Origin: a virus
Reading direction: 5' to 3' (one strand)
IMG/VR virus record: IMGVR_UViG_3300027747_002638
Length of the DNA stretch: 64,000 nt
Shown piece after piece: positions 174 through 62,608 of the stretch (positions are counted from its first letter, which is position 1; every line of letters starts with the position of its first letter). Under the pieces are notes generated by a model that saw only the letters and a list, made by a program, of their open reading frames with translations, did not search any database and had not been told where the DNA came from. Made by a program: the position numbers and the translations under genes.

Positions 174-179
174 GTGTAA
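174..179 (+). promoter_or_regulatory. GTGTAA putative late promoter
   Basis: Recurrent hexamer, 9 nt before ATG 189. Confidence 0.7.
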
Positions 180-188
180 TATTCTTAT

Positions 189-755
189 ATGGCAAATATT
201 CAAGATCCAGAATTTAATAAAAATGTATCCATGGTTTATACAGAAGAGCCAGGATTTACAGGATACAAAGGTTTAGATTTTACAAAATTAGATAATATTG
301 AAGAAATACTCCAAGAATCAATATCTACAGGCTCAAAAAGTACAAATGCTTATTTAAGCGGAATCAATGCAAAACTTTTTGTAACTGGAGATAATTTCCC
401 ATTAGGAGTTAAAGGATTAATTGTTTATCAAGCAGATTTAAGTCCACAGTTTGATGGAGTTCAAACTTATCAAGAACAAAGTTCAAATATAAGTAATTAT
501 GGCCCAAGCGGAATTACTGGCACTATTATGCAAACTAATAGTTACAGAAGAGAACTTTATGTGCAAAATTTATCAACAGGCGCACTATATGTAAAATATG
601 GAGCAAATATAAGCCCAAATTCTTTTAATTTTATTTTAGCAAAAAATACAAACCTTAATGAAGGCGATGGTGGAAGTTTAAATGATCAAGGATACAATGG
701 AGAAGTTAGTGTTAGTGGTTTTAACGTAAGATATATTGCTTGGGAAAGATATTAA
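189..755 (+). CDS. Hypothetical, probable virion/late beta-rich protein
   Basis: 188-aa ORF; RRELYVQNLSTGALYVKYG beta-sandwich-like C-half; many S/T-G dipeptides; GTGTAA upstream. Confidence 0.55.
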   Translation: MANIQDPEFNKNVSMVYTEEPGFTGYKGLDFTKLDNIEEILQESISTGSKSTNAYLSGINAKLFVTGDNFPLGVKGLIVYQADLSPQFDGVQTYQEQSSNISNYGPSGITGTIMQTNSYRRELYVQNLSTGALYVKYGANISPNSFNFILAKNTNLNEGDGGSLNDQGYNGEVSVSGFNVRYIAWERY

Positions 756-778
756 TTTTTTTTTAAAAAAACTTTAAA

Positions 779-1966
779 TTAAGCTTTACCGTAAACTTCT
801 CCGCCCTTTGCAATCATAACATTCATTCCGCGGTTTTGAAAAGTAGAACCATTAAACGCTATATTATTTCCGCCTGGTACTGGACCAACTCTTACATTTG
901 ATCCATTACTAGCTCCAGTTTTAAAAGTTTGCGGTATAAAATTTGGAAGATTAATATCAGGAAGAGTAGGGCAGAAAAGAGGTCTGTCATAAACAGAATT
1001 AGCTTGTATAGATTTACAAATATTTCTTATTTTAACTGGATTAGCAGATCTTCCACCTGATCTATCAGCATATGGACCTTGAGCTTTAATTGGGTGTTGG
1101 CGTTCGAACATAGAACTTTTAGAAGGACCACCTCTGCTTCCTCCACCAACTCCAGATCCCATAGTTCCAGCTCCACCTGGACTTCCCATTCCTCTTCTTG
1201 GCATATTAGGAGTTCCACAAAATCCACCACCTTTTCGATTAGGTGTTCCACAAAATCCACCAGGAAAAGTTCCTCCTCCACCTCCAGGAGTTTTAGGTGC
1301 GCAAAAATTATATTGACCATTTGATCCTTTGTCGCCATTTAATTCTGGTTGAATTGTATTTTTAAGACCTATTTCCCAATTACTTAATTCAGTCAATGAA
1401 GTAGTTTTAGCATTTCTTCTTATAAGCCATTCAACGGTCCAATTTTGTTTACTAGAAGGTCTACTTGGCCTTGTTATTCCACTGCTATTAGCAACACCAC
1501 CTTGTATGCTAGGAAGAGTTGCATTAAAACTTCCACCACAAGATATTGGTCCAGGAGATCTTATAGGATTATATACTGGTAAAGTATAATTTACTCCTCC
1601 ATTAGCACCATTAGCAGCAAATGAACCTCCAGCAGTTGGGAACCCCCCGCAAATTTGTATATTTTTTGTTGTACCAGTTCCTCCATTAAAACAATCTACT
1701 ACTTTAGGATGATTATAAATTAAATTACTACCTAATTGATTAAAAAGTCCTTGTAAAGTTTTCTTAATGTCCACGGTAGAACATATATATTTTTTATCTG
1801 TAGCATTGTGTTTTACTTGTATAACGCCGCAACTTGGAATTTGATGAGTTGTTGCTGGTTTGCCTGGAGCTTGACCAGTTTTAGTTGCTTGAGCTTGATT
1901 AGCTGGAAGATTAAGACTATTCCAAGCTGGAGGTCTAGTCATTGGTGTTGGTAAACATGCTGGCAT
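779..1966 (-). CDS. Gly/Pro-rich protein with a degenerate GIY-YIG-like domain
   Basis: GVIQVKHNATDKKYICSTVDIKK and EIGLKNTIQPELN resemble GIY-YIG motifs; low-complexity inserts; GTGTAA 8 nt upstream. Confidence 0.5.
   Translation of the reverse strand: MPACLPTPMTRPPAWNSLNLPANQAQATKTGQAPGKPATTHQIPSCGVIQVKHNATDKKYICSTVDIKKTLQGLFNQLGSNLIYNHPKVVDCFNGGTGTTKNIQICGGFPTAGGSFAANGANGGVNYTLPVYNPIRSPGPISCGGSFNATLPSIQGGVANSSGITRPSRPSSKQNWTVEWLIRRNAKTTSLTELSNWEIGLKNTIQPELNGDKGSNGQYNFCAPKTPGGGGGTFPGGFCGTPNRKGGGFCGTPNMPRRGMGSPGGAGTMGSGVGGGSRGGPSKSSMFERQHPIKAQGPYADRSGGRSANPVKIRNICKSIQANSVYDRPLFCPTLPDINLPNFIPQTFKTGASNGSNVRVGPVPGGNNIAFNGSTFQNRGMNVMIAKGGEVYGKA
1207..1262. repeat. Short imperfect direct repeat encoding GGFCGTPN twice (minus strand)
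   Basis: ttaggagttccacaaaatccacca and ttaggtgttccacaaaatccacca. Confidence 0.75.
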
Positions 1967-1974
1967 ACTAACTA

Positions 1975-1980
1975 TTACAC
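1975..1980 (-). promoter_or_regulatory. GTGTAA putative late promoter
   Basis: TTACAC, 8 nt from the ATG at 1966. Confidence 0.7.
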
Positions 1981-2041
1981 AAATTATATTATATATATAA
2001 AAAAAAATATATTTTCTTTAAAAACAATAAAATCTTATAAA

Positions 2042-2047
2042 GTGTAA
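2042..2047 (+). promoter_or_regulatory. GTGTAA putative late promoter
   Basis: 11 nt before ATG 2059; divergent from the 1975 copy. Confidence 0.65.
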
Positions 2048-2058
2048 TATGCTATTGA

Positions 2059-2502
2059 ATGATTATTAAAAACTCAAAGCAATTATTAAATTCTAAAAAA
2101 GGAATAAATTTATATATTCCTACAAGGAAAAGATCCGCACCAAGAATAGGCAGCGATAACCCAGCGAATGCAGCAGAACCTGACGCAACAGCATGGGTGT
2201 TGATGGATGGCCCTTTCTATAACACCGCAGGAAATCCTAGTTCTGGATTTATTGGTGGACAGAGCTGGAGAAAGATGCAACCAGGCGCCGCTGTAAATGG
2301 CCGAGCATCATACAGCTATGGAGATGAGGGTGTAAATTGGACTGGAACTCAATGGCAATACACCAATACTAGTCTTGGAGTTATCGCCTCTTCTTTAAGT
2401 AATGTAGCTTTTCCATGGTTAGCAACATGGACTAATGGATATTCTGGAGCAAAGATTACTTCAAGCTATAACAAGACAACTAACTATCCAGCAGTACCTT
2501 AG
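2059..2502 (+). CDS. Hypothetical Trp-rich protein with basic N-terminus (possible virion decoration)
   Basis: 147-aa ORF; basic leader MIIKNSK...YIPTRKR; Trp/Gly-rich C-domain. Confidence 0.55.
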   Translation: MIIKNSKQLLNSKKGINLYIPTRKRSAPRIGSDNPANAAEPDATAWVLMDGPFYNTAGNPSSGFIGGQSWRKMQPGAAVNGRASYSYGDEGVNWTGTQWQYTNTSLGVIASSLSNVAFPWLATWTNGYSGAKITSSYNKTTNYPAVP

Positions 2503-2535
2503 AATTAAATAATTCAAATACTAATGGTTTTTAAA

Positions 2536-2541
2536 GTGTAA
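2536..2541 (+). promoter_or_regulatory. GTGTAA putative late promoter
   Basis: Intergenic; 12 nt before ATG 2554 (3 nt before ATG 2545). Confidence 0.65.
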
Positions 2542-2544
2542 CGA

Positions 2545-3570
2545 ATGTATAATATGGAAATTGATTTTACCAGCGATATTCAAGCAGCTAAAAAAGGCAA
2601 AGCACCACTTAATAAACCATTTAGACTTCCTTCTGGCAGTAAAAAGAAATTCGGTGTTTACGTTAAGAATGATAAAGGTAATATTGTAAAAGTTACTTTT
2701 GGCGATCCAAATATGTCTATTAAAAGAGATAATCCAGAAAGACGCAAAGCCTATAGAGCAAGACATGGCTGTGGTAATCCTGGCCCAAAATGGAAAGCAA
2801 ATTACTGGTCTTGTAAAATGTGGAGTGCAAAACCAGTTAGTAAAATTACCGCAAGTGAAGAAGAGATTACTTTAGAAGCAGAAATTCAAGGCAAGAATAA
2901 AGGTCTTTGGTATAACATTCAACAAAAGAAAAAAAGAATGGGCAAAAATTATCGTCCAGCAAAACCAGGATCTCCAGATCGTCCAAGTAAAGATGCATTT
3001 AAAAAAGCTCAAGCAGATGACTATACTAATCAAGATTATAACTGGGATGGAGAAACAGAATTTGATCAAAATCAATTTACTCAAGAAGATCCAACTTTAA
3101 ATGAAGTAGAAACAATGGACGAACATGACATGGAAGCTCTTGAAATGAGCGAAAGTCAATTATCAGCAATTGCAGATAAAGCAGAACAACTTCTTGAAGC
3201 GATGACTGATCCAGAAGTTGCAGACGATATATTAGAACCTTGGATTCAAAATAAATTAGCAATTCTTGATGATTATATGGCTACAATTTATGATTATATT
3301 ATGTATCCATCAAAAGAAGAAGAAATGCAAGATCAACAAAATCCAAATTTAAATCAAAATCAAGCATCTTCTATGTTCAAGGTTGGCGACAAAGTTAAAA
3401 ATATTAATGCTATGTGCAAGCATTATGGTAGTGAAGGTACAGTTAAAGAAATTCGTGATCTTCCTCAAGATATGGGTTATGCAGTTATATACGAATGCTC
3501 GAACAATGGCCCAACTTGGAAAATGGGAGATATGCTCGGTAAAACAGAAGTTCAATTAAAAAAGATATAA
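2545..3570 (+). CDS. Multi-module phage protein (basic ARHxC...YWSC domain, basic linker domain, acidic helical domain, SH3/KOW-like C-domain)
   Basis: VKVTFGDPNMSIK...RARHGC...ANYWSCKMW; GLWYNIQQKKKR; EPWIQNKL; FKVGDKVKN; start may be 2554. Confidence 0.65.
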   Translation: MYNMEIDFTSDIQAAKKGKAPLNKPFRLPSGSKKKFGVYVKNDKGNIVKVTFGDPNMSIKRDNPERRKAYRARHGCGNPGPKWKANYWSCKMWSAKPVSKITASEEEITLEAEIQGKNKGLWYNIQQKKKRMGKNYRPAKPGSPDRPSKDAFKKAQADDYTNQDYNWDGETEFDQNQFTQEDPTLNEVETMDEHDMEALEMSESQLSAIADKAEQLLEAMTDPEVADDILEPWIQNKLAILDDYMATIYDYIMYPSKEEEMQDQQNPNLNQNQASSMFKVGDKVKNINAMCKHYGSEGTVKEIRDLPQDMGYAVIYECSNNGPTWKMGDMLGKTEVQLKKI

Positions 3571-3574
3571 TCTT

Positions 3575-4466: not shown

Positions 4467-4475
4467 ACTAATATC

Positions 4476-6488: not shown

Positions 6489-6750
6489 TCAATTGAGAAA
6501 CTTATTATTGAGTAATTACGAAAGAAGTCTTCCATCTAAAAGGGATACAGAAGATTTTATAAGTAATTTTAATCAATATAGAGCTAAAAAGAAAGCTCAA
6601 GAAAAAACACATTATGGATTACTTTTTGCTTGCATTTTAATATTAACTATGATAGGATCAATAGTAATGAAGCAAAATAAAAATAATTTAGATATTCAAA
6701 CTGCAGCTGGAGTTGAAAAATGCAATACGCAACTCATGGAAAAAAAGTAG
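6481..6750 (+). CDS. Small single-TM membrane protein
   Basis: TM YGLLFACILILTMIGSIV; overlaps upstream stop. Confidence 0.6.
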   Translation: MDNQLRNLLLSNYERSLPSKRDTEDFISNFNQYRAKKKAQEKTHYGLLFACILILTMIGSIVMKQNKNNLDIQTAAGVEKCNTQLMEKK

Positions 6751-7925: not shown

Positions 7926-7929
7926 TATG

Positions 7930-7935
7930 GTGTAA
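7930..7935 (+). promoter_or_regulatory. GTGTAA putative late promoter
   Basis: 8 nt before ATG 7944. Confidence 0.7.
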
Positions 7936-7943
7936 GCCCATAT

Positions 7944-8210
7944 ATGGTAATTAAAATTAAGAACTGGTGGAAAGATTTAAAATCTTATGATAGGTTTTTC
8001 TTTATCTCATTTGTGCCAGCGATGCTTTTCACGCTTTGGGGGCTAAGTGACCTTTATATTAATTACTTTGATTTATTAAGTAAAGAAGATCACCTTCAAT
8101 TCTTTCTGAGGTTTGCTTTTCCAATATCACTAGCCACCTTAATAACAGTTTTAGAACGCAACAAGAGAAGGAAGCTAATAAAAGATATCAAAACCTATTT
8201 AAATGACTAG
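7944..8210 (+). CDS. Two-TM membrane protein (holin-like topology possible)
   Basis: Two hydrophobic segments, basic C-tail RNKRRK, own GTGTAA. Confidence 0.5.
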   Translation: MVIKIKNWWKDLKSYDRFFFISFVPAMLFTLWGLSDLYINYFDLLSKEDHLQFFLRFAFPISLATLITVLERNKRRKLIKDIKTYLND

Positions 8211-8215
8211 TGTAA
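8210..8215 (+). promoter_or_regulatory. GTGTAA putative late promoter
   Basis: 8 nt before ATG 8224. Confidence 0.7.
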
Positions 8216-8223: not shown

Positions 8224-10059
8224 ATGGCTTTTATAGTTAAAAAATTACCTAAAAAATTAACTGATGGACTTTTAGCTTATTGGAAATTAGATAATAATAA
8301 TTGGCTAGATTCAAGCAATAACGGAAATACACTTACAAATAACGGAAACGTTACGGTTGGTACTGGAAAAATCAACGGCGATGCGGTCTTTAACGAATCA
8401 AATAGCCTTACAAATAGTTCATTAGCAATTCCCAATTCAGCTTTTTCTATTTCAACTTGGGTAAAAAGTTCAACTTATATAGACGGAAGCGTTATTGCGG
8501 GTCAATGGTCGTATTTAGATAATCCACCATTTCAAGTAGCAATAAATTGTAATTTTGGTTATATAAATGCCCTCTGGTCTACTGATGGAACAAGTTTAAC
8601 AGATAGATGGGTTACAGACATTCCCCTTCCATATGATGACATATGGCATCATGTCGTTTTAACTTTTGATGGAACAACGGAAAGAATTTATTGGGATGGT
8701 GTTGATTCTGGTTCATTTGTGCCAAATGGTTTATCATATCAAACTTCTGGGTTTGGAATTGGAAATGGAAACAATGGATATTTTGACGGAGAAATAGATG
8801 AATGTGGAGTTTGGGATCGAGCATTAACTCAATCAGAAATAAAACAACTTTATAACTCTGGGTCTGGAATAACCTACCCATTTTATTCTTCTCTTTTACT
8901 TCATATGGATGGAGCAAATGGGTCAACAAATTTTACAGATAGTTCTATAAATGATCTTCCAATTACGGTCAATGCAAATCCTCAGATAAGCACAGCTCAA
9001 AGTAAATTTGGAGGAAGCTCTGCTTATTTTGATGGAGATGGAAGTTATTTAGACGTTTCTAATTTGCCTAGCAATTATCTAAGTCAAGATTTTACTATTG
9101 AAGCTTGGGTTTGGATAGATGGCTCTAAATATAATTCTTGTTTATTTAATACATTTCCACACAACTCTTTTGGAGTTAGTTTAAAAAGAGAAGATGCGGA
9201 CAATTTAACAACTGTTTTTATTGGTAATGGTTCTAATTGGTCTTCGTCTTTTTCGAGCGATACCTTATTATCTTTTGATACATGGCAGCATATTGCTCTT
9301 GTAAGAAGGAATAATACTATAACTTTATATGAGAACGGAATAGCTCGTGGTTCTATTAATGATGTACCAAGCGGATTTGGTACTTCTCTCAGAATTGGGT
9401 CAATTACATATATTTACGGTTTAAATGGCGAAGAATATAAAGGATATATGGACGAATTTAGAATTATTAAATACGCCGCTTACACATCAAACTTTACTCC
9501 ACCAACTCAACCATTTGAATTTTCTGGTGCACGAAGTTTAATAATTAAAAAAAATACAACCTTCAAAATTCCAAGAACTCCTGTTAATTTATTTACATGT
9601 CCTTTTGAAGTAGATACAGACACATGTCCAACTGTGGGTGGTCTTAGCGACCCTGGATGGTTTTTAGCAGGAAATACTTCTAGAATTGGAAAAACTACAG
9701 CTCCAGATGGTTCTAATACAGCAGTAGAATATGAATCTTTATACGCAGGTGGCTCTTTTGTATCTCAAGGATTTTTACAATATTGGTTACCAAATACCAC
9801 ATATGTATTCTCTATTTGGGCAAAATCAACTCTTGGATTGGCTACTGATGGTCAAATAGTAAACGTAACAAAAAACGGAGGTAGCGACAGAGTAGTTATA
9901 GAAGCACTTGGAAACTTAACTTCTACATGGCAAAAGTTTACTATAACATTTACTACTGGTCCTAGCAGGAATAGTTATATAACTGCATTCTTTTGTGGAG
10001 ATATTACTGAAGGAGTAAGATTTGCTTTATGGGGTGCAGAAATGTATATTATTAATTAA
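8224..10059 (+). CDS. Virion-associated lectin-like protein: two LamG/concanavalin A-like domains plus CBM-like domain
   Basis: GLLAYWKLD...WHHVVLTFDG...FDGEIDECGVWDRALT; SLLLHMDG...DFTIEAWV...WQHIAL...GYMDEFRI; NTTYVFSIWAK...WQKFTITFTT. Confidence 0.8.
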   Translation: MAFIVKKLPKKLTDGLLAYWKLDNNNWLDSSNNGNTLTNNGNVTVGTGKINGDAVFNESNSLTNSSLAIPNSAFSISTWVKSSTYIDGSVIAGQWSYLDNPPFQVAINCNFGYINALWSTDGTSLTDRWVTDIPLPYDDIWHHVVLTFDGTTERIYWDGVDSGSFVPNGLSYQTSGFGIGNGNNGYFDGEIDECGVWDRALTQSEIKQLYNSGSGITYPFYSSLLLHMDGANGSTNFTDSSINDLPITVNANPQISTAQSKFGGSSAYFDGDGSYLDVSNLPSNYLSQDFTIEAWVWIDGSKYNSCLFNTFPHNSFGVSLKREDADNLTTVFIGNGSNWSSSFSSDTLLSFDTWQHIALVRRNNTITLYENGIARGSINDVPSGFGTSLRIGSITYIYGLNGEEYKGYMDEFRIIKYAAYTSNFTPPTQPFEFSGARSLIIKKNTTFKIPRTPVNLFTCPFEVDTDTCPTVGGLSDPGWFLAGNTSRIGKTTAPDGSNTAVEYESLYAGGSFVSQGFLQYWLPNTTYVFSIWAKSTLGLATDGQIVNVTKNGGSDRVVIEALGNLTSTWQKFTITFTTGPSRNSYITAFFCGDITEGVRFALWGAEMYIIN

Positions 10060-10062: not shown

Positions 10063-10137
10063 TTACTTAACTCTTTCTACTAAATAATATATATAAACCA
10101 ATACAGCAAAACAAATTAAACTAGTAGACAAGGTCAT
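10063..10137 (-). CDS. Unannotated 24-aa hydrophobic peptide MTLSTSLICFAVLVYIYYLVERVK
   Basis: Fills intergenic gap; own GTGTAA 8 nt upstream; single-TM composition. Confidence 0.55.
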   Translation of the reverse strand: MTLSTSLICFAVLVYIYYLVERVK

Positions 10138-10145: not shown

Positions 10146-10170
10146 TTACACTAGATTAAAATATGTGTAA
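10146..10170. promoter_or_regulatory. Back-to-back divergent GTGTAA pair
   Basis: TTACAC 10146-10151 (8 nt to ATG 10137) and GTGTAA 10165-10170 (8 nt to ATG 10179). Confidence 0.7.
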
Positions 10171-31249: not shown

Positions 31250-31255
31250 GTGTAA
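31250..31255 (+). promoter_or_regulatory. GTGTAA putative late promoter within replication region
   Basis: Immediately after stop; 9 nt before GTG 31265 (6 nt before GTG 31262). Confidence 0.6.
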
Positions 31256-44007: not shown

Positions 44008-44820
44008 ATGAGTCCAAAAATTAAAAAAGAAGAAGATACAATTTCAATTGGTAGTTCTGAATTATTTGAGTCAGTTATTGTTCAAGAACAAAAGCAGCAA
44101 GTTGCAGGAGTAGTTCCACCTAATCTAATAACAAGAAATCAATATGGTCTTGTTGAAGACAAAAGTCTTAATTATATCTTTAATGAAGATGGAAGTATTA
44201 ATTGGCGTAAAATGGTAAAAACTGAACATCTTGTACCAAATAGACAAAAAACTCAAGAAACAGATGTTTCTAAACTCCAAGATAAAGATCTACTTATTCT
44301 TCTTGGTGGTATTAAAGAATTAGCTCAAATTCGTGGATATACAAGCGTAGAATATAAAGTCGTCGCAGCTTCAGAAAATTATTTTGCAACTAGCTGTAGA
44401 ATTACTTGGCTACCAAATTATGAAACTGGTGGTAAAGAAATAGTTTTTGAATCACTAGCGGATGCAAGCATAAATAATACAAAAAGTTTTGCTAGATTCT
44501 TTTTAGCTGCAATTGCAGAAAATAGAGCCTTTGTAAGGTGTGTGCGTAATTTTCTTAAAATAAATATTGTAAGTCAAGAAGAATTAGGAGATGCGAAATT
44601 ACTAGACGATGCAGTAACTACTCAAGATAATCCTACCTCTCCACACGTTCTATTAGAAAAAGTAATTAAAGAAAAAAATATATCTTTTGATGTCTTAAAA
44701 AAGAAATTAATTAAAGAAAAATTTGAAAATGCCGAAAATTTAAATTCAATCTCAGATATACCTAAAGTAAAAATATTTGAATTAATTGAAAGAATTAAAA
44801 ATATTAAAATTAACAGTTAA
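44008..44820 (+). CDS. Putative single-strand annealing protein (Rad52/RecT-like)
   Basis: GIKELAQIRG, ADAS..N, AIAENRAFVRCVRNFL.I...EE. Confidence 0.5.
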   Translation: MSPKIKKEEDTISIGSSELFESVIVQEQKQQVAGVVPPNLITRNQYGLVEDKSLNYIFNEDGSINWRKMVKTEHLVPNRQKTQETDVSKLQDKDLLILLGGIKELAQIRGYTSVEYKVVAASENYFATSCRITWLPNYETGGKEIVFESLADASINNTKSFARFFLAAIAENRAFVRCVRNFLKINIVSQEELGDAKLLDDAVTTQDNPTSPHVLLEKVIKEKNISFDVLKKKLIKEKFENAENLNSISDIPKVKIFELIERIKNIKINS

Positions 44821-45070
44821 TGCAAGTTCCACCGCATAATGGATTTCCATCTGGCGCAGCATACAGGACTCCACTCATAAATCGATAACAATTATAATTC
44901 AAAGTATAGGCTACTTCTCTGAACTGAATATAAGTTCCAGTTTTTAGATTAACATCTATACTTCCAAGGTAATCTGCAACATCGATTAATGGTAAACTTG
45001 AACCAAGTCTGTTTCCAGCTAGGTCATAAATTACAGCATGATTACTTACAAATAATGGAAGATTTGCCAT
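44810..45070 (-). CDS. Small late hypothetical protein
   Basis: 86 aa, C-terminal Cys cluster, GTGTAA 8 nt upstream. Confidence 0.6.
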   Translation of the reverse strand: MANLPLFVSNHAVIYDLAGNRLGSSLPLIDVADYLGSIDVNLKTGTYIQFREVAYTLNYNCYRFMSGVLYAAPDGNPLCGGTCINC

Positions 45071-45078: not shown

Positions 45079-45084
45079 TTACAC
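45079..45084 (-). promoter_or_regulatory. GTGTAA putative late promoter
   Basis: TTACAC, 8 nt from ATG 45070. Confidence 0.7.
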
Positions 45085-45881: not shown

Positions 45882-46220
45882 TTATAAAATAACACCACCC
45901 CATCCGCCAGGATAGCCTGCATATGGTGGACAATCACATTTTGAAGTGCATCCGCAACAATCTTCTGGTTTAGCGCATTCTGCATCTGGATTATAACAAT
46001 CATCGCAACTGTCTGTACAACCACCCTGCGTGCATACATCGCATGCTGGCCCATTTAAAGTTGCATCTGCATCATAGTTACAAGCGTTAGAATCTGTACA
46101 TCCACAAGTGGCGCATTCATCACAAGCATCACAGCAACAAAATGTTTGTTTAATGCCAGAATTACATTGACAATCCGTAGAACAAGCGCACTCGTCTGTT
46201 TCGTTTGGTACATTGGGCAT
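45882..46220 (-). CDS. Cys-rich protein (23 Cys in 112 aa) with GCTD..A.NY repeats
   Basis: GCTDSNACNYDADAT and GCTDSCDDCYNPDA; GTGTAA 9 nt upstream. Confidence 0.7.
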   Translation of the reverse strand: MPNVPNETDECACSTDCQCNSGIKQTFCCCDACDECATCGCTDSNACNYDADATLNGPACDVCTQGGCTDSCDDCYNPDAECAKPEDCCGCTSKCDCPPYAGYPGGWGGVIL

Positions 46221-46229: not shown

Positions 46230-46235
46230 TTACAC
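46230..46235 (-). promoter_or_regulatory. GTGTAA putative late promoter
   Basis: TTACAC, 9 nt from ATG 46220. Confidence 0.7.
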
Positions 46236-46982: not shown

Positions 46983-47783
46983 TTAAGAATTTATATATCC
47001 TTGAAAATTCAAATCAAACTTGCCATATTCATTAACTGAGAAATTATAATTTTTATTAGAGTAAATCATTTTATTTAAATTAAAACTTTTAACAATTGCA
47101 GAATTATTAATATTTTTAAAATTAACCTGTAAGTCTTTGGTCTGCAAATTAGAAAAGAAACTATAAGGAGAAGAAATAGATTCATCGCTTATTTCAAAAT
47201 TAAATCTACAAGAAACCTCTATAGGATATTCGCTAGTTACCGCAGAAGGTACATAATTACCAATTGTATATATTGGTAACTTTTTACAAGAATAAGAGAT
47301 TCCACAATTGCTTACTCTGTTTAAATTTGTTTCAGCCAAGTTAAAATCAATATAACAATAATTAATAGGCGAAATTTCATAATTAATAGCAGAATTATTA
47401 GTATTTATACCAGTCAGATAGCTTAATTCTCCCAATACTCTGCCTTGAACAGACACTTCTACTGGTCTATCAAGTTGAGCGTCTATAGAATAACTATCTA
47501 TAAAACCACTAGAAAAATACAAATATTTGTCACCATATTCAATTTTTCCTGTAAAAAAAGAATTACCAGTATAATCAATAAATGGCTCTGAAGTTCCAGG
47601 TATATAATTTAAATTAAAATTAGCAATAATTGGTTGATTTATTATATAATTCATACCAGTATTAGATATAGCAAATGAAGGAGTTATATTCGTATCATAA
47701 TTTAAGCTTAAACTTTGTATACCAGATATAAAAGTATTATTTAGGTAAAATTTTTGATTTTGAATCTGAGAAACATTAAACAT
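46983..47783 (-). CDS. Tail tube-like/structural protein
   Basis: Two similar halves (ISGIQSLSLNY; RVSNCGISY...PIYTIG), beta-rich, GTGTAA upstream, adjacent to tail genes. Confidence 0.5.
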   Translation of the reverse strand: MFNVSQIQNQKFYLNNTFISGIQSLSLNYDTNITPSFAISNTGMNYIINQPIIANFNLNYIPGTSEPFIDYTGNSFFTGKIEYGDKYLYFSSGFIDSYSIDAQLDRPVEVSVQGRVLGELSYLTGINTNNSAINYEISPINYCYIDFNLAETNLNRVSNCGISYSCKKLPIYTIGNYVPSAVTSEYPIEVSCRFNFEISDESISSPYSFFSNLQTKDLQVNFKNINNSAIVKSFNLNKMIYSNKNYNFSVNEYGKFDLNFQGYINS

Positions 47784-47792: not shown

Positions 47793-47813
47793 TTACACCC
47801 TTTTTAAGTGTAA
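47793..47813. promoter_or_regulatory. Back-to-back divergent GTGTAA pair
   Basis: TTACAC 47793-47798 (9 nt to ATG 47783); GTGTAA 47808-47813 (21 nt to ATG 47835, with GAGG/AAGG SD in leader). Confidence 0.72.
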
Positions 47814-47834: not shown

Positions 47835-48371
47835 ATGGCAAGCGTTTACGACACAGTATATGGTTGGGCTGTAGGTACTACTTATAGTAAGTACAATATT
47901 GTATCTGGATCTAATAGCAAATATTATTATTCTTTAATAGATAATAATCTTGGAAACAATCCAACTACAATTGCTTATTTACAATCTGGATGGGATGGTT
48001 ATAAATTATTTAATTCTAGTTATATACCAAACTTTTTCTGGCAACCATCTTATCAATCAAGTGCAAAAATTGAACCAAGAGTTAAAAAAATTCAATTTGG
48101 AAACGGATACCAACAAAGAATACCAGACGGTATAAATTTTGAACTTAAAAATTTAACTTTAACTTTTGAAAATAGATCAGAAACAGAAACAGTTTCAATT
48201 TTACATTTCTTAGAACAAAGAGGCGGACAACAATCTTTCGCTTATAATGTTCCAACTATTTATGCAAAACCTTCTGGAGTTAGTAAATTTATTGCACCCA
48301 ACTGGGAAACTAATTATAATTTTTACAACAATTATAGTATTAAAACAGTATTTGAAGAAGTCCCAAATTAA
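47835..48371 (+). CDS. Minor tail protein, lambda gpM-like (distal tail)
   Basis: F.W.PSY, PRVKKIQFGNGYQQRIPDGIN, FLEQRGGQQSF, FEEV. Confidence 0.88.
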   Translation: MASVYDTVYGWAVGTTYSKYNIVSGSNSKYYYSLIDNNLGNNPTTIAYLQSGWDGYKLFNSSYIPNFFWQPSYQSSAKIEPRVKKIQFGNGYQQRIPDGINFELKNLTLTFENRSETETVSILHFLEQRGGQQSFAYNVPTIYAKPSGVSKFIAPNWETNYNFYNNYSIKTVFEEVPN

Positions 48372-54471: not shown

Positions 54472-55904
54472 AGCTTTTAGCTAAAAATTTAAATTTAAAA
54501 TTAACTTGGGAATTATCATCAGCTCTTCCAGCATTATATGCTAATAAATTAATACCAACTAAATATTTTCCAAATTTTAATGTAGATATTTATGATAAAG
54601 AAAATAATCTTTTACAAAGTTTTAAAAATATTGATTCAAAAAAAGAAATAGAAAAATATATTGTACCAAACGAAATTTTATATCCATCCAAAGAATCCAT
54701 AGAAGGCACAAGAATTCAGAAAGATCTTCAATCAGAGAAAAATATTCAAAAAGTTTTAGAAAATTATTTTGAATATCCTTTCCTTTCTAATTATAAAAAA
54801 TATAAACAAATAAAAAATAAAATAGGATTTTTTGATAATTTAAAATTTGATATTACTTTTAATTCAAAAGAACCATCTTATTTAAATTTTGAAGTCGAAT
54901 ATCCAAAACTTAATACTTTAAAAATAGATTCTATTTTTAATAAAATTTACAGAAGTAATGATTATTATTCAATTAAATTTTTAATAAATACAGAAAATTG
55001 GAATGAAAGCCAAGCCTATTCATTATTAATATTCCCTTCTTATAAGGATACGAAATTAAATAAAATTTTAATAGAAAATGTAAGTAGTTTATGGCTTAAT
55101 TCAATAGATGAATTAAAACTATTAACCGTTCCATTTGTTGAAACTGGATTAGTTGAAAATTTGAACTCTTTAGATCTTAAAATATATGTTTTAAATAAAA
55201 TTCAATTAGACTTATATAAATTCCTTGGTGATTTTGAATTTCCAGAAGATATAGAAAACTTTTTTTCAAGTACTTATTCTGACCAAATTATAAATGTTTC
55301 TTTGGACCAAAATAATAATAAAAATGGATTCTTTCAAGGAAGTTTATATTCATTTAATGATGAAAATTTTAATGCATTATCTTGGCCTAAAAATGAACTA
55401 TTAATTAATAATTTAAACTATAAAAATTACTTTCCAATTTCTAATTATAACAGTAAAGATACTATTTTAATAGAAGAGCAAGCAATTATTAACAATGTAT
55501 TATCTATATTCAATTCTCAAGATATGGAATCAAATCAAATAGGATTATATTATAATAATATATATGAGTCCTGTGCTCAAGATATACCATTCTTTAATTT
55601 TTTAAATTTAAATAGCCTAGAAATCGTTGAAGTCAGAAACTTAAATGGTAATATTCAGATATTTTTAGAAGCAACAACTAATATAGAAAATATAGAAAAC
55701 ATATATATAGAAAGTTCTTCTAATTTAATATTACAAAATAAATACTTAAAAAATATAAATGGTAAAGCTTATACGGCTATATTATTTTTATACGAATATT
55801 CAAAATTAGAAGTAATAAATAAATCTTTACAAGATAACTTACAAGTAGATCAAATAATTTATAAAAAAGTGCCAATTAGTTTTTCTTGGAAAATTATAAA
55901 TTAA
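54468..55904 (+). CDS. Hypothetical Asn/Ile-rich protein downstream of gpJ
   Basis: 478-aa ORF, ATGA-coupled to gpJ. Confidence 0.6.
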   Translation: MKLLAKNLNLKLTWELSSALPALYANKLIPTKYFPNFNVDIYDKENNLLQSFKNIDSKKEIEKYIVPNEILYPSKESIEGTRIQKDLQSEKNIQKVLENYFEYPFLSNYKKYKQIKNKIGFFDNLKFDITFNSKEPSYLNFEVEYPKLNTLKIDSIFNKIYRSNDYYSIKFLINTENWNESQAYSLLIFPSYKDTKLNKILIENVSSLWLNSIDELKLLTVPFVETGLVENLNSLDLKIYVLNKIQLDLYKFLGDFEFPEDIENFFSSTYSDQIINVSLDQNNNKNGFFQGSLYSFNDENFNALSWPKNELLINNLNYKNYFPISNYNSKDTILIEEQAIINNVLSIFNSQDMESNQIGLYYNNIYESCAQDIPFFNFLNLNSLEIVEVRNLNGNIQIFLEATTNIENIENIYIESSSNLILQNKYLKNINGKAYTAILFLYEYSKLEVINKSLQDNLQVDQIIYKKVPISFSWKIIN

Positions 55905-58900
55905 TTTTTCATTGTATACTTGCTACTACTTAACATTCCGCCTGGTCTTTGCTCGGTATTTAGAACTTTAATAACTTCAGATTTAATTCTATCTGATAAT
56001 TTTCTATTTTTCTCTAATTCATCTCTTCGGTCTTGATCAGTTGTAATTTTATCGTTTGATTGACTATTTGCGGTACTAGTTTCAACAGATGAACTCTTAT
56101 CTATATTTACTGTTATATTAATATTATTAGTATTTGATACAGAAGATTGAGTTTCTGATTGATTTAATCCTGCATTTTGATTTCCTACCGATCCTCCATC
56201 TGCAAATTTATTTATTCTTCCAGAATTTAATGAATCAAAAAATCCTTTACCATACCTATTAACCGTATCTTTATTAACGACATATTCTCCATCCATTAAT
56301 AATGCTGGCACATTATCTTTATATGGAGAACCACCTTTAGCATACCCTTTTCTAATAGTTGGAACAGTTCCTCTTAATCCATAATTATTTGCTTGAACTG
56401 GTGGGCCGAATTTCATGCTTCCAGCAGAATAATCTCCACCTCTCCAATTTGCCCATCCTTTGTTAGATGTTCCTCCAAAAGCTTCTGATAAAACTTGTTT
56501 AATCGCTGGAACACCATATTGACTAAGTGCACCACCACCCACAGTCATTCCTGCTTGTAATAATGAACCCCAGAATAAATTATTTTGTTGTTTATTATAA
56601 GCGTCTCTATTTTGTTTATTTAATTGATCTACCCTAGCTTTTTCTTGTCGATTTCTTTCTGCAAGATCTGCAAGATATTGATCATAATTAGAAACTTCAT
56701 TTTGAAATGTTAATAATCTTTGAACTTTTTCATTTCTTAATTGATTCATTGGATTATTTTCATCTAATATTGCTTGAGGAGATAATCTTGGATCAAAGAA
56801 ATATGATCCTTCTGTTGGTAATCCATATTTAGTTGCACCAGTAGTATAAAAATCATTTAATAAATCTGAAGAAAATGCTCCGCCAGTATCTGTTCTTTGA
56901 GATGAAACATCTGAACCAACCGATGTCATAGCTATTGGCCAATTATTTACTTTTATCCATTCGTTAGGATCTCCTATTTTTGATCCTACTCCAAACCCTC
57001 CTCCGTCAGCTTTTTTAACTGTTCTTCCACTATTTAAACTATCTAAGAAATCTTTTCCATATTTTTCTACAGCAGCTTTTTTAACTACATATTCTCCTTT
57101 ACTTAAATATGCTGGAATATCATCTCTTACTCCTGATCCACCAGTAACATGTCCACCAATTGCATATCCTTTAATAAAACCACCATTTTTTCTTCCTAAT
57201 GGGCTTTTTAATAGATCACTAATTCCACCTACAGAGCTAAATACGCTATTAAATATAAGATTAGTTGACATTTCTAATGCTAACTGTTGAATTCTTCTTG
57301 ATATATTTAAAGCCATTGTAGTAAATGCATCACCTACTGTTTGCGTTCCTTCTATAACAGACTGAAATGCATTATTAAATTCTGATTTAATAGTTCTTGC
57401 TGTATCAGAAGCTGTATTATTTAAATCTCTCATTACATCTTGAGTTCCATATGCAAATTCATCTTGGAAACTTTGTAATGTATCCATTGGTGTATAATCA
57501 CCACCTCGGATTGCTTTTTCTCTTGCGGCTGCTCTAGCTTGTTTAAATTCATCGCTAAAAGCTGTACCTTCTCTAAATTTAGCTTCTGCTATTAAACTTT
57601 CTACGGTTGCTTCTATTGCAAAATTTAATTTTGTGATATTATCACCTAAAGTTTTTGTTAATTCTGCTTCTTTTTCTTTATATGTATTTAAAGCTTCTTG
57701 TCTTAATGATGTATCAGATATAGAAGAACTCATCGCTATTAAACTTTTTTGTGTCATAGCGGCAGAAGTATTTATATCATTAATTGTTGTTTGTAATTGT
57801 ACAAAAGCCTCATCTGTAAGTTTACCACCATTAGCTACAACGGACGCGCTTGTTTCTTTTAAAGCCTCACCTAATTGTTTTGTATATTTTAATCTTTTCT
57901 CTTCGTCAACTGTACCGCCGAAAACTCCAGCCATACCTTGACTGAAGGCGCCACCTACTACTGCATTAGGTCTAAATTGCTTACCAGTTGTTTGTAAGAA
58001 GTCTTCTACTAAACTACCAAAATCTGCTTGTTGTAAAAGTTTATTTCCAGTATCCCTTACGTTATTATCTTTGTTAAATAAATCAATTAATCTATCTTCT
58101 AATTGTAAAAGATTAAATGCTGTTTTTAATCTTCTCTTTTCTGCAACCGCTAAAGCATCAGATGCATTTGCTAAATTTTTATATATTTTTTCTAATTCTG
58201 CACCCTTTGTTCCAATATCTAATGAAGATTTTAAAACATTTGTTATCTGATCTTTTAAATCTTTTCCAGTTTGAGGTAAAATTTCTCCAGAAGAAATTAA
58301 ATTATCTATAAAAGAACTTAAATTTTTACTAAAATTATCAATCGCAGTTTGACTTCTGGATTCTACTATATTACTTATAGCTCTATTTCTTCGTACTTCA
58401 AATGGTTGAGCGCGTCCAGTTGATATTCTTGCTATTTCTTTTTTAAGTTCTTCATCTGATATTGCTAATTTAGAAGCTGGACCTTTTGCTGTAAGTGTTG
58501 CAGATGAATTTCTTGCATCGTCTAGAGCTGATTTACTATTAATTAAAATTTCAGTTAATTTGTCAAAACTTGACATTACATCTTTATTTTTTGCAATTAA
58601 AGCTCCGAGTGATTCACCACTTCTAGTAGTCAAAACATTAAATTGTTTAAATACTTCACTAAATTTTTCTGCACTTTTAATATTTTCTGGTTTTAAAGTA
58701 TTTACGGAATCAATAAATTCTCTAATCTGTTTAGTAGAAGTTAATGCTGAAGATGCTTTTCCTAGGGCTTTTTGTAATTCATTCTCTGATCCACTTGCAA
58801 TAGCATCTACAATAGATTTTCCAATATCTGAATCTGAACTAGCGATTATTCTACTTAAAGCCTCATCTCTTGCTTTTGATGCAGCTTCAAGATTACCTTT

Positions 58901-61900
58901 TGATTCTCCAGTTCTAATTCCTCTTGCTGTTTCTCTATTTGTTAAGAATGCTTGTACGTCTTCAGAAAATCTTGCTAAATTAGATGTAGCTTGTTCAGTT
59001 AATTTTCGGTACTCTTCTGTTTTGTCTTTTAACTGCGCAAAAGCTTTAGTAAGCCCTATTGTTAACCCTATTAGACCTCCTACGGCTGCTCCATATTGGC
59101 CAAATATTGCTCCTGTTCCAGCGAAAGTTGCTGTATCGCTTGCTACTGTTGCTCCAAATCTTACCGCTTTATTTTCTGGTGCAAATTGCTCCGCTGTTTG
59201 AGCAACGATTGGAACAGCAATACTAGCCAATAATCCTGCATTTTGTAATCTACCTGCCGCTGCAGTTCTTCTTTGAGTTACTCTATCTAATGTCCCTCTG
59301 GCTGCTTCTCCATATCTTCCTTCTTGACTAGCTAATCTTTCTAATCTTGCTCGAGCTTTTCCTCCTCCAAAGACTCCAAATGCTCCAGCTGCTTCTTTTT
59401 CTAACCCAGATAAATACGTAGCAAATCTTTCGCTAGATGTTGAAACTCTTGTAAATAAACTTTTTACTTTTTGGGTACTTTGAGCTGTTAATTGATATGA
59501 TTGAGCAATTATTCCAGCTTCTTTTTCTGCTGTAGCGAGATCAATTTCTTGAGCTTTTAATCTCTTAGAAATTTTAGCTAAATCCTTAGCAACCTCACTA
59601 GATAATATATTAATATCTTTTACAGACATTCCAGCGACCGCTGTTTGCTCAAATTGAATGTTTTGTCCTGCAAAATTAGGTACAAATCCAAAAGCTGCTC
59701 CAGCTTTTCTTGCAGAAGATATTGATGAATATCTTGAAATTCCTTGATTTAATCCTTGTGGTTCATCTTGAGTATTATAAACTCCTAAACCTAATGGATT
59801 ACTTGACGCCATTAATTTGCCACTTTGACCGACTCTAATCTTTGAGTTTGGTACACCAGCTGAAATTTCTCTAGATACAGCCTGTTCTAGTGCTGAAAAA
59901 TTAGGTATAAATCCTGAAGCTGCTGTTCTTGGCTTTGGCAATAAAGGCCTAGTAGTAGCATCTCTATATGCTTTATCAATTATCTCTCTAGCTTGTTCAG
60001 CTGTTATTGTTCTTTTTGCGTCCGCTCTTAAAACTGGTGGAGAAAATCCAAATTTACTATTAAATGCATTTGTAGGTGGACTTGATTCTTCAAAATCAAA
60101 AGGTTTTTGAGCTGTATTTTGGTCAAAAGCTTTTTGTAAAGCTCCTCCGCGTTTTGTGCCTAAATTTACAGCTGCTTCAAAAATTGATCCCTCAGTTCCT
60201 GCTGGGAAAAGATTAACTCCAGCTTTTCTATTATTAGATGCAAGTAAAGATTTAAATTTTGGATCTGGACTTAATGGGCCAAAAATATCATTTGCAAGTT
60301 GAGCAAGTGGATCAACAAATAATTTATTAATTGCTGTAGAAAAAGAATTTTTATCTTGAATTTCGCTATTTTTTAAATCTTCAAGAGTTCTAGCTTGTAT
60401 TCCTTCAAATTTTACAGATCTTGGATCTTTTGTATAGCCTAATGTACTAAATGCAGTTTGAGCATCTATAGATCCTCTTCTTCCACCAACTCCAACTATT
60501 CCAAACTCACTCGCAGGTACAACAACTACTTCGCCTTGGCTAGTTTTTGCTCCAGACATTTTACCACTTTTAATTGCATCAATTTCTTTTTGAACTTCTG
60601 GAGTTATTTTATAACCTCTAGATTTTATAAAAGCATCTATATTTTGTCCCTTAGCTTCAGTAAATAAACTTTGTGCAATTTGTAAACTATTTTTAGCAAA
60701 ATTAGGTATAAATCCACTACTAGCATATGGATTAAATCCATGAATAGAAGAGAATTGATTTTGGTAATTTTTTCCAGCTTTGCTTTGTGATGGAGGCATA
60801 ATTGCTGGTTGAGATAATCCTGGAAATTTTTTAACAGTTTCTGCTGAATTATAAACAGTTTTTCCTACGCCAGAGATATTCATTTCTTTTATTTTTCCTG
60901 GTTTGTATCCACCAGATAATGCACCAGAAATTTCTGACATAGCATATGATGGTATAAATCCAGAGTTTGCCGTGGTAACTTGTCCACCTTTTACAGAAAC
61001 TCCTCTTCTTACTAATCCACCTGTGATAGTAGATGATAAACTAGAAGCTTGTGCTCTTATGGCGTTTTGTTCTTTTAATATTTGTAATATTTTATTTTCT
61101 ACGCTCAAAACTCCAATTTGTTTGCTTGCAATTGCTGCTAATAAAGTTGGTTCCTGGGTTAAGACTTGATTAATTTTATTTTGTAATTGTAATCTGCTGT
61201 CTGCTGCTTGATTTATTCCTAATAAAGTTTTAACAGAAGCTGCTGCGAATTGTCCTAAGTTTAGCAATAATTTTCCTAGAACTGCTGTAATTAAAACTAC
61301 TCCTGGTCCAGAGATGAAAGAAGAAATTCCATTCAATATTCCTTGTCCAATTTTAGATCCAACACTCTCAGTATCTTGATTGTTAATCATCTCTAAAAGA
61401 CCATTAACATTTTTTAGTGTTCCTTCTATCGCTGGTTGAAATGCTCCTGCTCCAACAGTTGCGCCTAATTGAGCTACATTATTTATAGTTCTATTAAATA
61501 AAGCGGCTAATGTTTCATTTAATGCTTGATTTCTTTTAAGAGCCTGATCTGTTGCAGATGTAGCGGTATTTAAAGCATTTTGATAAATTGAATATTCTTT
61601 ACCTAAATCTCCCAATGCTGCTTTCAAAATATTTATTTGGAAAACTCCACCAACAGTTTCTGCTACTTGAGATTTTTGTGCATCAGATAAAGTATCAAAT
61701 GTTGTACTTAATTGTTTTAAAATTTGTATTGCTGGTAAAGTATTACCTTCTAAATCTCTTACTCCAATTCCTAAAGCTTGTAATTGAGATAATACTTCTG
61801 GTCTTTCTATTCTCGTAAAGATAGTTTTAAGTGAATTACCTATTACAGCTCCACCTCTAGCAGTAGTTTGTTGAACGCTTGTAACGACAGCTAATAATTC

Positions 61901-62578
61901 ATCAAATCCAACTCCTGCGTCTTGAGCAGAAGTTCCTACTCGTTTGATGGCTTCAGCCAAATCAGCAGAACTAACTGCGAAAGATGAGTCAACATTAGCT
62001 AATTTATTAACAATAGTTGTAGAATCTAGCGCTGTTTTATTAAAACTGTTTATTGTAGCCGTTAAAGCTTCAACGCTACTAATGGTATCTAATCCACTTA
62101 ATCTAGTAAGAATAAGAGCATCTCTTGTTCTTTTTAAAGTCTCTTCTACTCCTAAACCTTGACGAGCTAATTCTGTAGCTGCTGCAGCTACTTCATTAAA
62201 CCCTTGTCCAGTGCTTTTAGCTATATCAAATAAATCGGCTCCAAATTTAGCTAGACCGCTAGTTGTTGTATTTAAAATAACATTAATATCAGTTAATGAT
62301 TTTTGTACATTAACTGTAGTTTTAATTAATTCTACAAAAGCTTTTTCTACAGTATATATTAATCCTGCACTAGCGCCGAATGCAATAACACGAGCATTTG
62401 ATGCATCTAATGATTTTTGGAATTCATTTGCTGCACCAGTGATTCTACCAAGAGGTTGAGTAAAGGCCTTTTCATTCAATCCTTTGAATTTAAAATCTCT
62501 CGATAAGGCGCTCTGAATATCTCTTTCGAGTTGCCTTGTATCTGCACCTACTGAAATTGTAGCGGAAGTCCTAGCCAT
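55901..62578 (-). CDS. Tape measure protein (TP901-type N-region) with extra internal modules
   Basis: ELARQGL, LANVDSSFAVSSADLAEAI, TARGGAVIGNSLKTIFTRI; Ala/Gly helical and TM-like segments; GG...GEYVV motifs. Confidence 0.9.
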   Translation of the reverse strand: MARTSATISVGADTRQLERDIQSALSRDFKFKGLNEKAFTQPLGRITGAANEFQKSLDASNARVIAFGASAGLIYTVEKAFVELIKTTVNVQKSLTDINVILNTTTSGLAKFGADLFDIAKSTGQGFNEVAAAATELARQGLGVEETLKRTRDALILTRLSGLDTISSVEALTATINSFNKTALDSTTIVNKLANVDSSFAVSSADLAEAIKRVGTSAQDAGVGFDELLAVVTSVQQTTARGGAVIGNSLKTIFTRIERPEVLSQLQALGIGVRDLEGNTLPAIQILKQLSTTFDTLSDAQKSQVAETVGGVFQINILKAALGDLGKEYSIYQNALNTATSATDQALKRNQALNETLAALFNRTINNVAQLGATVGAGAFQPAIEGTLKNVNGLLEMINNQDTESVGSKIGQGILNGISSFISGPGVVLITAVLGKLLLNLGQFAAASVKTLLGINQAADSRLQLQNKINQVLTQEPTLLAAIASKQIGVLSVENKILQILKEQNAIRAQASSLSSTITGGLVRRGVSVKGGQVTTANSGFIPSYAMSEISGALSGGYKPGKIKEMNISGVGKTVYNSAETVKKFPGLSQPAIMPPSQSKAGKNYQNQFSSIHGFNPYASSGFIPNFAKNSLQIAQSLFTEAKGQNIDAFIKSRGYKITPEVQKEIDAIKSGKMSGAKTSQGEVVVVPASEFGIVGVGGRRGSIDAQTAFSTLGYTKDPRSVKFEGIQARTLEDLKNSEIQDKNSFSTAINKLFVDPLAQLANDIFGPLSPDPKFKSLLASNNRKAGVNLFPAGTEGSIFEAAVNLGTKRGGALQKAFDQNTAQKPFDFEESSPPTNAFNSKFGFSPPVLRADAKRTITAEQAREIIDKAYRDATTRPLLPKPRTAASGFIPNFSALEQAVSREISAGVPNSKIRVGQSGKLMASSNPLGLGVYNTQDEPQGLNQGISRYSSISSARKAGAAFGFVPNFAGQNIQFEQTAVAGMSVKDINILSSEVAKDLAKISKRLKAQEIDLATAEKEAGIIAQSYQLTAQSTQKVKSLFTRVSTSSERFATYLSGLEKEAAGAFGVFGGGKARARLERLASQEGRYGEAARGTLDRVTQRRTAAAGRLQNAGLLASIAVPIVAQTAEQFAPENKAVRFGATVASDTATFAGTGAIFGQYGAAVGGLIGLTIGLTKAFAQLKDKTEEYRKLTEQATSNLARFSEDVQAFLTNRETARGIRTGESKGNLEAASKARDEALSRIIASSDSDIGKSIVDAIASGSENELQKALGKASSALTSTKQIREFIDSVNTLKPENIKSAEKFSEVFKQFNVLTTRSGESLGALIAKNKDVMSSFDKLTEILINSKSALDDARNSSATLTAKGPASKLAISDEELKKEIARISTGRAQPFEVRRNRAISNIVESRSQTAIDNFSKNLSSFIDNLISSGEILPQTGKDLKDQITNVLKSSLDIGTKGAELEKIYKNLANASDALAVAEKRRLKTAFNLLQLEDRLIDLFNKDNNVRDTGNKLLQQADFGSLVEDFLQTTGKQFRPNAVVGGAFSQGMAGVFGGTVDEEKRLKYTKQLGEALKETSASVVANGGKLTDEAFVQLQTTINDINTSAAMTQKSLIAMSSSISDTSLRQEALNTYKEKEAELTKTLGDNITKLNFAIEATVESLIAEAKFREGTAFSDEFKQARAAAREKAIRGGDYTPMDTLQSFQDEFAYGTQDVMRDLNNTASDTARTIKSEFNNAFQSVIEGTQTVGDAFTTMALNISRRIQQLALEMSTNLIFNSVFSSVGGISDLLKSPLGRKNGGFIKGYAIGGHVTGGSGVRDDIPAYLSKGEYVVKKAAVEKYGKDFLDSLNSGRTVKKADGGGFGVGSKIGDPNEWIKVNNWPIAMTSVGSDVSSQRTDTGGAFSSDLLNDFYTTGATKYGLPTEGSYFFDPRLSPQAILDENNPMNQLRNEKVQRLLTFQNEVSNYDQYLADLAERNRQEKARVDQLNKQNRDAYNKQQNNLFWGSLLQAGMTVGGGALSQYGVPAIKQVLSEAFGGTSNKGWANWRGGDYSAGSMKFGPPVQANNYGLRGTVPTIRKGYAKGGSPYKDNVPALLMDGEYVVNKDTVNRYGKGFFDSLNSGRINKFADGGSVGNQNAGLNQSETQSSVSNTNNINITVNIDKSSSVETSTANSQSNDKITTDQDRRDELEKNRKLSDRIKSEVIKVLNTEQRPGGMLSSSKYTMKN
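59668..60973 (-). repeat. Four copies of peptide repeat A-x-(S/F)-G-F-(I/V)-P-(N/S)-(F/Y) in the tape measure protein
   Basis: TANSGFIPSYA (~60941-60973), YASSGFIPNFA (~60695-60727), TAASGFIPNFS (~59894-59926), AAFGFVPNFA (~59668-59697). Confidence 0.8.
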
Positions 62579-62602
62579 GCCTTATTCCTTTACTACAATA
62601 TA

Positions 62603-62608
62603 TTACAC
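62603..62608 (-). promoter_or_regulatory. GTGTAA putative late promoter of tape measure gene
   Basis: TTACAC, 24 nt from ATG 62578; leader contains AAGGAATAAGG SD. Confidence 0.68.

Follow-up and report, generated by a model that had tools for sequence, protein, structure and literature searches.

In bacteriophage T4 the late promoters consist of the element TATAAATA without a -35 box and are served by gp55 together with gp33 and the sliding clamp, and the late mRNAs have leaders with Shine-Dalgarno (SD) sequences. In Actinobacteria, Deinococcus-Thermus and their phages, for example Thermus phage P23-45, a -10 box is found about 6-7 nucleotides (nt) before the start codon; the leaderless genes of these bacteria have no SD sequence, their 5'-terminal AUG is translated and boxes of the TANNNT type are read by the host primary sigma factor. 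The gp36 protein of phage phiEco32 reads one element, tAATGTAtA, with transcription starting 6-8 bp downstream (PMC8948821), while the cryo-electron microscopy structure of gp36 has a T at -12 and a G at -11, a base that E79 and H80 read and that is the first to be unwound (PMC12276001). The late promoters of Salmonella phage 7-11 are read by gp47 and are bipartite (GTAAtg-N16-aCTA), the distance from promoter sequence to start being 6-9 bp (PMC8948821). The element described here, GTGTAA (the box), recurs in a stretch of 64,000 nt of the IMG/VR virus record IMGVR_UViG_3300027747_002638, the whole of which is referred to as the window, and no description of GTGTAA or GTGTAAT as a phage promoter was found in the literature searched.

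The box, in its fuller form RGTGTAAT, is read here as a single-element promoter of the -10 type for a phage-made factor of the sigma-70 family, with messages starting at or near the start codon, and we give this reading a probability of about 70%. A -10-type element for a phage sigma factor or RNA polymerase had been proposed in an earlier sequence-only reading of this DNA, and that interpretation is now supported by the enrichment of the box before start codons, its conservation before orthologous genes, a sigma factor encoded in a relative and a rule that ties SD sequences to long spacers.

For comparison, a number of relatives of the window were available. L001 is a 166-kb contig of 70% identity, found with a 395-amino-acid (aa) protein of the window as query, and G002 (74 kb) is 94.9% identical to window positions 45699-64000 and extends 56 kb past its right end. 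G006 is a related contig of 134 kb, 87% complete, which displays nearly the whole genome layout. A gpL-like protein query led to 52 loci with 33-96% identity, among which G005/L053 represent a distant clade (33-38% gpL identity, 37-39% GC).

GTGTAA is not more frequent in the window than expected by chance (18 copies vs 23.6 +/- 4.6 in shuffles), but its placement is far from random, with 13 of the 18 copies lying within 35 nt upstream of called starts, a space which makes up 1.5% of strand positions (binomial P 2e-20). Among hexamers upstream of window starts it ranks first by a wide margin, with TATAAT fifth, and the spaced pattern GTGTAW-N8-RTG occurs six times and its N9 form four times, each against 1.0 expected. 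Positional enrichment, the check proposed along with the sequence-only reading, is therefore extreme in the window and is also found clade-wide, as GTGTAA-N8/9-ATG has 117 matches in 14 related records vs five for the reversed control. GTGTAA is again the first-ranked upstream hexamer in G006 (29 of 45 copies, P 9e-36), and about 27 of the 37 copies in G002 stand immediately before starts. Inside genes the box is depleted on both strands, with 12 sense copies vs 23-48 expected and 10 antisense copies vs 26-40 expected, which fits a signal at the DNA level since an RNA signal should count on the sense strand only.

All 14 intergenic or stop-adjacent copies listed previously are present where they had been placed, each facing a start codon, and their spacers are exactly as reported, ten being of 8-9 nt and the others of 11, 12, 21 and 24 nt. 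Two copies within coding regions had also been mentioned (2330+ and 3829+); both are confirmed and two further ones, 9480- and 50487-, bring their total to four. The 14 sites are as follows.

174..179, plus strand: GTGTAA box, 9 nt to the ATG of 189..755 (188 aa, no family); kept in L001 and G006.
1975..1980, minus strand: GTGTAA box, 8 nt to the ATG of 779..1966 (395 aa, no family); kept in L001.
2042..2047, plus strand: GTGTAA box, 11 nt to the ATG of 2059..2502 (147 aa); divergent from the box at 1975.
2536..2541, plus strand: GTGTAA box, 12 nt to ATG 2554 (338 aa).
7930..7935, plus strand: GTGTAA box, 8 nt to the ATG of 7944..8210 (88 aa); kept in L001 and G006.
8210..8215, plus strand: GTGTAA box, 8 nt to the ATG of 8224..10059 (611 aa, LamG domains); kept in L001.
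10146..10151, minus strand: GTGTAA box, 8 nt to a hydrophobic open reading frame (ORF) of 24 aa, 10063..10137; divergent from the box at 10165.
10165..10170, plus strand: GTGTAA box, 8 nt to ATG 10179 (272 aa, DUF5856 C-terminal domain).
31250..31255, plus strand: GTGTAA box, 9 nt to GTG 31265 (second GTG taken as start).
45079..45084, minus strand: GTGTAA box, 8 nt to the ATG of 44810..45070 (86 aa); kept in L003.
46230..46235, minus strand: GTGTAA box, 9 nt to the ATG of 45882..46220 (112 aa); kept in L003 and G002.
47793..47798, minus strand: GTGTAA box, 9 nt to the ATG of 46983..47783 (266 aa); left half of a back-to-back pair.
47808..47813, plus strand: GTGTAA box, 21 nt to the ATG of 47835..48371 (gpM-like minor tail protein).
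62603..62608, minus strand: GTGTAA box, 24 nt to the ATG of the tape measure gene 55901..62578 (2225 aa).

The three divergent pairs described before are real (1975-/2042+, 10146-/10165+ and 47793-/47808+), the last of them sitting back-to-back in an intergenic gap of 51 bp. The first G of the box at 8210 is the final base of the TAG stop of the upstream gene, and the box at 31250 is abutted by the stop of its upstream gene. The ORF of about 90 aa starting at GTG 31265, located between the glycosyltransferase block and DnaB, has an orthologue in G006 (91% identity) in which box, spacing and GTG start are all kept. The orthologue of the gene starting at ATG 2554 has a spacer of 14 nt in L001 and is without the box in G006. 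The 24-aa ORF (10063-10137, minus strand) is below the default ORF-listing length; it is conserved in L001 (96%) and G006 (58%) and its hydrophobic sequence suggests that it is probably a small membrane peptide. The position of the box also favours ATG 10179 over 10170, as well as GTG 31265, as the predicted starts of their genes. The downstream genes had been described as virion-type where recognisable. A virion-type family match was obtained for three of the 14, namely the minor tail protein, the tape measure protein and the LamG protein, which resembles virion structural proteins; the remainder mostly have no match to a family with a known function.

In L001, where the flanks differ, all six orthologues retain the box before them, as do eight of nine in G006. 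In 47 of the 52 gpL loci the gpM-like gene is preceded by the 51-bp divergent gap with both boxes unchanged, while the bases between the boxes and just past them vary. In G006 the box precedes about 30 virion-region genes and three genes at 95.8-99.7 kb. The distant clade G005/L053 also retains it, mostly with spacers of 11 nt and 21-24 nt instead of 8-9 nt, so that the box is not bound to one distance from the ATG, unlike a ribosome signal.

A position matrix built from 37 non-redundant sites gives the consensus RGTGTAAT and nothing else that is informative. Every position from -50 to -2 upstream of the box stays below 0.35 bit, with which the alignment of the 47 loci agrees, so neither a -35 box nor a further promoter is present on that side. 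Matches of the sigma-70 type in window 1-12000 do not outnumber those in shuffles (55 vs 58). The spacer has its mode at 8-9 nt, equivalent to 7-8 nt from the last T of GTGTAAT to the ATG, which leaves no space for a further -10 box downstream; with no conserved element upstream as well, these units would be without a promoter unless the box is one. Five cases were found, in G002, G006 and G005, in which a strong GC-rich terminator is followed by the box within 0-20 nt. The claim that SD sequences go with the long spacers was borne out, as an SD-like word was found in 12 of the 19 spacers of 14 nt or more and in one of the 50 shorter ones (Fisher P 7e-8). In the window, the leader after the box at 47808 (47814-47834) is purine-rich and SD-like, and that of the tape measure gene (62579-62602) contains AAGGAATAAGG. 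It was also observed that the long leaders before tail and virion genes share AGGTAAAAGGT or AAGGAATAAGG, a feature kept in relatives at 33-38% protein identity (G005, L053, L054); this shared purine leader may act as a strong or double site for ribosome binding.

The placement of a promoter close to the start codon is not confined to the box. Replication, sugar and small early genes of G006 (100-133 kb) have promoters of the type TTGACA-N17-TATAAT rather than GTGTAA, and promoters of this host type are also present in the window, as in the following example.

44008..44820, plus strand: gene with a host-type TTGACA-N17-TATCAT promoter, the second box of which ends 6 nt before the ATG.

Other host-type promoters resembling TTGACA-N17-TATAAT are at window positions 28361, 35588 and 40342 (also 31578 and 11053), likewise ending 6-7 nt short of the ATG of replication, sugar and early genes. 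In all, a distance of 6-7 nt between the end of the sigma-70-type promoter and the ATG was seen in 20 of 33 cases in G006 and in seven of 10 in the window, indicating that the leaderless geometry is general and that GTGTAAT occupies the place of a -10 box. Most genes of the phage are without an SD sequence, and those behind host-type promoters look leaderless as well, judging by this spacing.

In the mechanism proposed, a phage factor of the sigma-70 family would bind the host core RNA polymerase and recognise RGTGTAAT. If its bases are assigned after the phiEco32 gp36 promoters, they would be G(-13) T(-12) G(-11) T(-10) A(-9) A(-8) T(-7), and transcription would start 6-8 bp past the box, on the A of the ATG itself or 1-2 nt ahead of it; by the same analogy the exact start site is predicted to be at or next to the ATG. 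For most genes with a box, translation would then proceed on mRNAs with no leader or almost none, while those with the box 19-25 nt from the ATG, as in the tail genes, would have a short leader offering an SD-like purine tract instead. The content of the box genes suggests that they are expressed late.

Two candidates for the factor were identified, of which one, here named sigA, is a protein of 228 aa encoded in G002 (L061:12613-13299) about 34 kb past the right end of the window, and also in L001. The search for a phage sigma factor that had been suggested thus succeeded in a record 95% identical to the window, but the factor found is not gp55-like. Its gene belongs to an operon with the order zinc-ribbon protein, sigA, 363-aa protein, ERCC4 nuclease and large terminase (TerL). 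The protein scores 28.5 bits against Pfam Sigma70_r2 (cut-off 24), its profile matches the sigma2 domains of extracytoplasmic function (ECF) sigma factors (E 5e-4) and there is a weak match, below the cut-off, to Sigma70_r4_2 (17.3 bits). Its structural model has a pLDDT (predicted local distance difference test) of 93.4 and a fold whose matches are almost all sigma factors; residues 5-81 align with the N-terminal domain of SigE (Z 7.8, root-mean-square deviation [rmsd] 2.3, 73 residues) and residues 150-221 with sigma4 of SigD (Z 8.8, rmsd 2.0, 62 residues). On the basis of the model, sigA is a sigma-70-family protein with sigma2 and sigma4 domains. Between these lie four invariant cysteines (C87, C90, C99 and C109), an insert which from its sequence is probably a zinc ribbon. 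The sigA family has 1869 homologues in 417 clusters at 50% identity; across the clade sigA is 68-75% identical and hence more conserved than gpL, which parallels the invariance of the box. A query with a distant member of this family returned no viral contigs.

The other candidate, sigB, is an ECF-like protein of 197 aa encoded in the early region of G003, G005 and G006 (G006 102856-103446; L056, L057), so that G006 has both. The records searched for sigma factors are all incomplete linear contigs, G006 (87%) being the nearest to complete, and the contig of G005 stops exactly where synteny would place the sigA operon. The promoter of the sigA operon is conserved and of host type (TTAGAT or TTGAAA, 17-18 nt, TATAAT, 5-7 nt to the ATG) and sigB is likewise behind a host-type promoter; timing therefore does not separate the two as candidate readers. 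One of these phage sigma factors, sigA or sigB, would be the reader of the box. That it is the type bearing the zinc ribbon, sigA, which reads GTGTAAT can be put forward only tentatively, the odds being somewhat against it.

A number of observations do not sit easily with this reading. No sigma factor gene is encoded within the window, and sigA has a sigma4-like domain although no -35 consensus was seen. In G006, where both sigma factors are present, no third motif that could belong to the other factor was found enriched, GTGTAA being the sole phage-specific one. RNA mapping on window 1-12000, done with two lake metatranscriptomes (assembled contigs only) and one DNA run, gave sparse metatranscriptome contigs which lie inside genes (e.g., 4523-5385 and 10290-10842) and none of which ends near a box. 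The late timing has against it that most downstream genes are without recognisable function. Leaderless translation also makes a demand on the host. No tRNA genes were found, and the UDP-glucose dehydrogenase of the phage, with scattered cellular relatives (50-59% identity; many in Pelagibacteraceae, also in Saccharibacteria and Nitrosopumilaceae), does not point to a single host.

A promoter at GTGTAA might also be read in another way, by the host primary sigma factor after a phage co-factor or activator has redirected it, in the manner of MotA/AsiA of T4 and the factors of P23-45, or by an unrecognised phage RNA polymerase. There would be room for such machinery, as many proteins of the window and its relatives are without a family and at least about a quarter of the genome lies outside the sequences available, and TGTAAT and TATAAT are one position apart. 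We regard it as unlikely nonetheless, given that two genes of the sigma-70 family are conserved over the clade and that a T7-type RNA polymerase had no match in four related records, where the model was as silent as in every control genome. A G at -11 is, moreover, the most damaging base for recognition by a primary sigma factor. In the corresponding position of the phiEco32 promoter it is the base that gp36 reads specifically (PMC12276001). An explanation by composition, in which the pattern would be a by-product of base usage or of a Val-stop (GTG TAA) context in a packed AT-rich genome, could appeal to the total count at chance level, to TAA as the commonest stop and to the several boxes at gene ends. 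However, the TAA of the box is never the stop of the upstream gene at the window sites examined, and for the boxes in divergent gaps there is no gene upstream on the same strand. With a placement of P 2e-20, a reversed control of five vs 117 and invariance in 47 loci, it is refuted by the placement, reversed-pattern and conservation controls and retains next to no probability.

The remaining alternative has GUGUAA acting in the RNA, either as a translation signal that replaces the SD sequence or as a processing site at which polycistronic late RNA is trimmed to leaderless messages, with transcription starting further upstream. The tight distance of 8-9 nt to the start codon in this clade would suit such a signal, as would the lack of SD sequences before most genes and the overlap or abutment of some boxes with the stop codon of the upstream gene. 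But a conserved promoter from which the longer RNA could start is missing upstream, the 51-bp divergent gaps included, and the box is found directly after strong terminators. It is avoided by the antisense strand of genes too, it is kept at other spacings in the distant clade and it exists with spacers of 19-25 nt that have an SD-like tract of their own, while operon-internal genes are without it. Taken together, these points make a role in the RNA quite improbable, and a promoter for a phage sigma factor is the reading retained here.

The window has a GC content of 29% and contains a lambda-like tail module of gpM-, gpL-, gpK-, gpI- and gpJ-like genes (47835-54471), followed by the gene of the 2225-aa tape measure protein on the minus strand (55901-62578). 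Its replication block (31578-40309) codes for DnaB, ThyX, primase, a PD-(D/E)XK nuclease, a PHP protein, an exonuclease and a DnaE-type polymerase, and the DNA polymerase III alpha subunit has distant matches only. No cultured relative was found for the window at the DNA level, nor for the 395-aa protein by tblastn against phages; for this product of 779..1966, PHROGs, Pfam, phage tblastn and the protein atlas returned nothing reliable. The sampled part of the window, 1-10000, is present in freshwater lake metagenomes, with 81-95% of its sampled words contained in the DNA runs X1-X4. From the tail module, the want of a cultured relative and the occurrence in lakes, the window belongs to a large uncultured freshwater siphovirus, and together with G002 it covers about 120 kb of a genome estimated at 130-170 kb.

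There are several further features of this DNA. About 20 genes for glycosyltransferases, UDP-glucose dehydrogenase and other sugar-nucleotide enzymes (11053-31249 and 40888-43976) form an unusually big block for a phage. A 670-aa protein (window 4476-6488) with a passenger-associated transport repeat and a weak PEP-CTERM-like C-terminus has the best coverage by metatranscriptome contigs within window 1-12000. In the best DNA run a contig over 1-2685 has a depth of 11.5 vs about 83 elsewhere, and a minor contig omits 385 bp inside gene 7371-7925 (window 7488-7874); segments 1-2685 and 7488-7874 look like strain-variable ones. Hexamers resembling restriction sites are strongly avoided in the coding DNA of the window, the G002 extension and G006, the observed vs expected counts being 4 vs 44 for GGATCC, 4 vs 21 for GGTCTC/GAGACC, 6 vs 20 for GGTACC and 2 vs 17 for GACGCC/GGCGTC.

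The general strategy of a phage sigma factor with a one-element promoter is already known. If the present reading is right, the box marks transcription units and true starts in a large and abundant clade of uncultured aquatic phages of which most genes are unannotated, picking out, for example, ATG 10179 over 10170, GTG 31265 and the 24-aa ORF at 10137, and a promoter sequence is now paired with two candidate sigma factors. The box and the ATG-abutting host-type promoters would then imply, as far as can be judged from sequence, that the host routinely translates leaderless mRNA, and leaderless expression would extend beyond the groups in which it is established. Should sigA be the reader, there would be a large undescribed subfamily of phage sigma factors and a one-box leaderless late programme in abundant uncultured freshwater and marine phages with hosts not known for leaderless translation.

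When set beside the known systems, the comparison with T4 late promoters made in the sequence-only reading holds for a short -10-only element before late genes; beyond that it is an analogy, the factor not being gp55-like. It is GTGTAA(T) that is enriched here and not TATAAATA at -10, and the sigma factors have two domains (sigma2 and sigma4) in contrast to the small single-domain gp55. With phage 7-11 there would be in common a phage sigma factor acting with the host core enzyme on late genes, but its promoters are bipartite, whereas neither flank of the present box shows conservation at the corresponding distance. The genes of Actinobacteria and Deinococcus-Thermus share the box-to-start geometry without an SD sequence, whereas here a second class with a phage-specific box exists and the system is a low-GC one.

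The closest precedent is gp36 of phiEco32, although the resemblance appears to be functional: no gp36 chain was found in sequence and profile searches of solved structures with sigA and sigB, and gp36 is absent among the 50 fold matches listed for the sigA model. The element of phiEco32 is tAATGTAtA and that of the present phage RGTGTAAT, and the four-cysteine insert of sigA and the presence of two sigma factors are features of the latter. The hosts and virions differ too, phiEco32 being a podovirus of E. coli for which a systematic leaderless placement is not described, and the present phage an aquatic low-GC siphovirus. However, in phiEco32, where gp36 acts with gp79, there is likewise a single element without a -35 consensus upstream of non-early genes, and a small phage sigma factor with sigma2- and sigma4-like domains works with the host core enzyme, as the candidate sigma factors would here. 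Both elements also have a TGTA core which, on the analogy drawn, places a G at -11, and the start distance of 6-8 bp known from phiEco32 would in the present phage reach the ATG.

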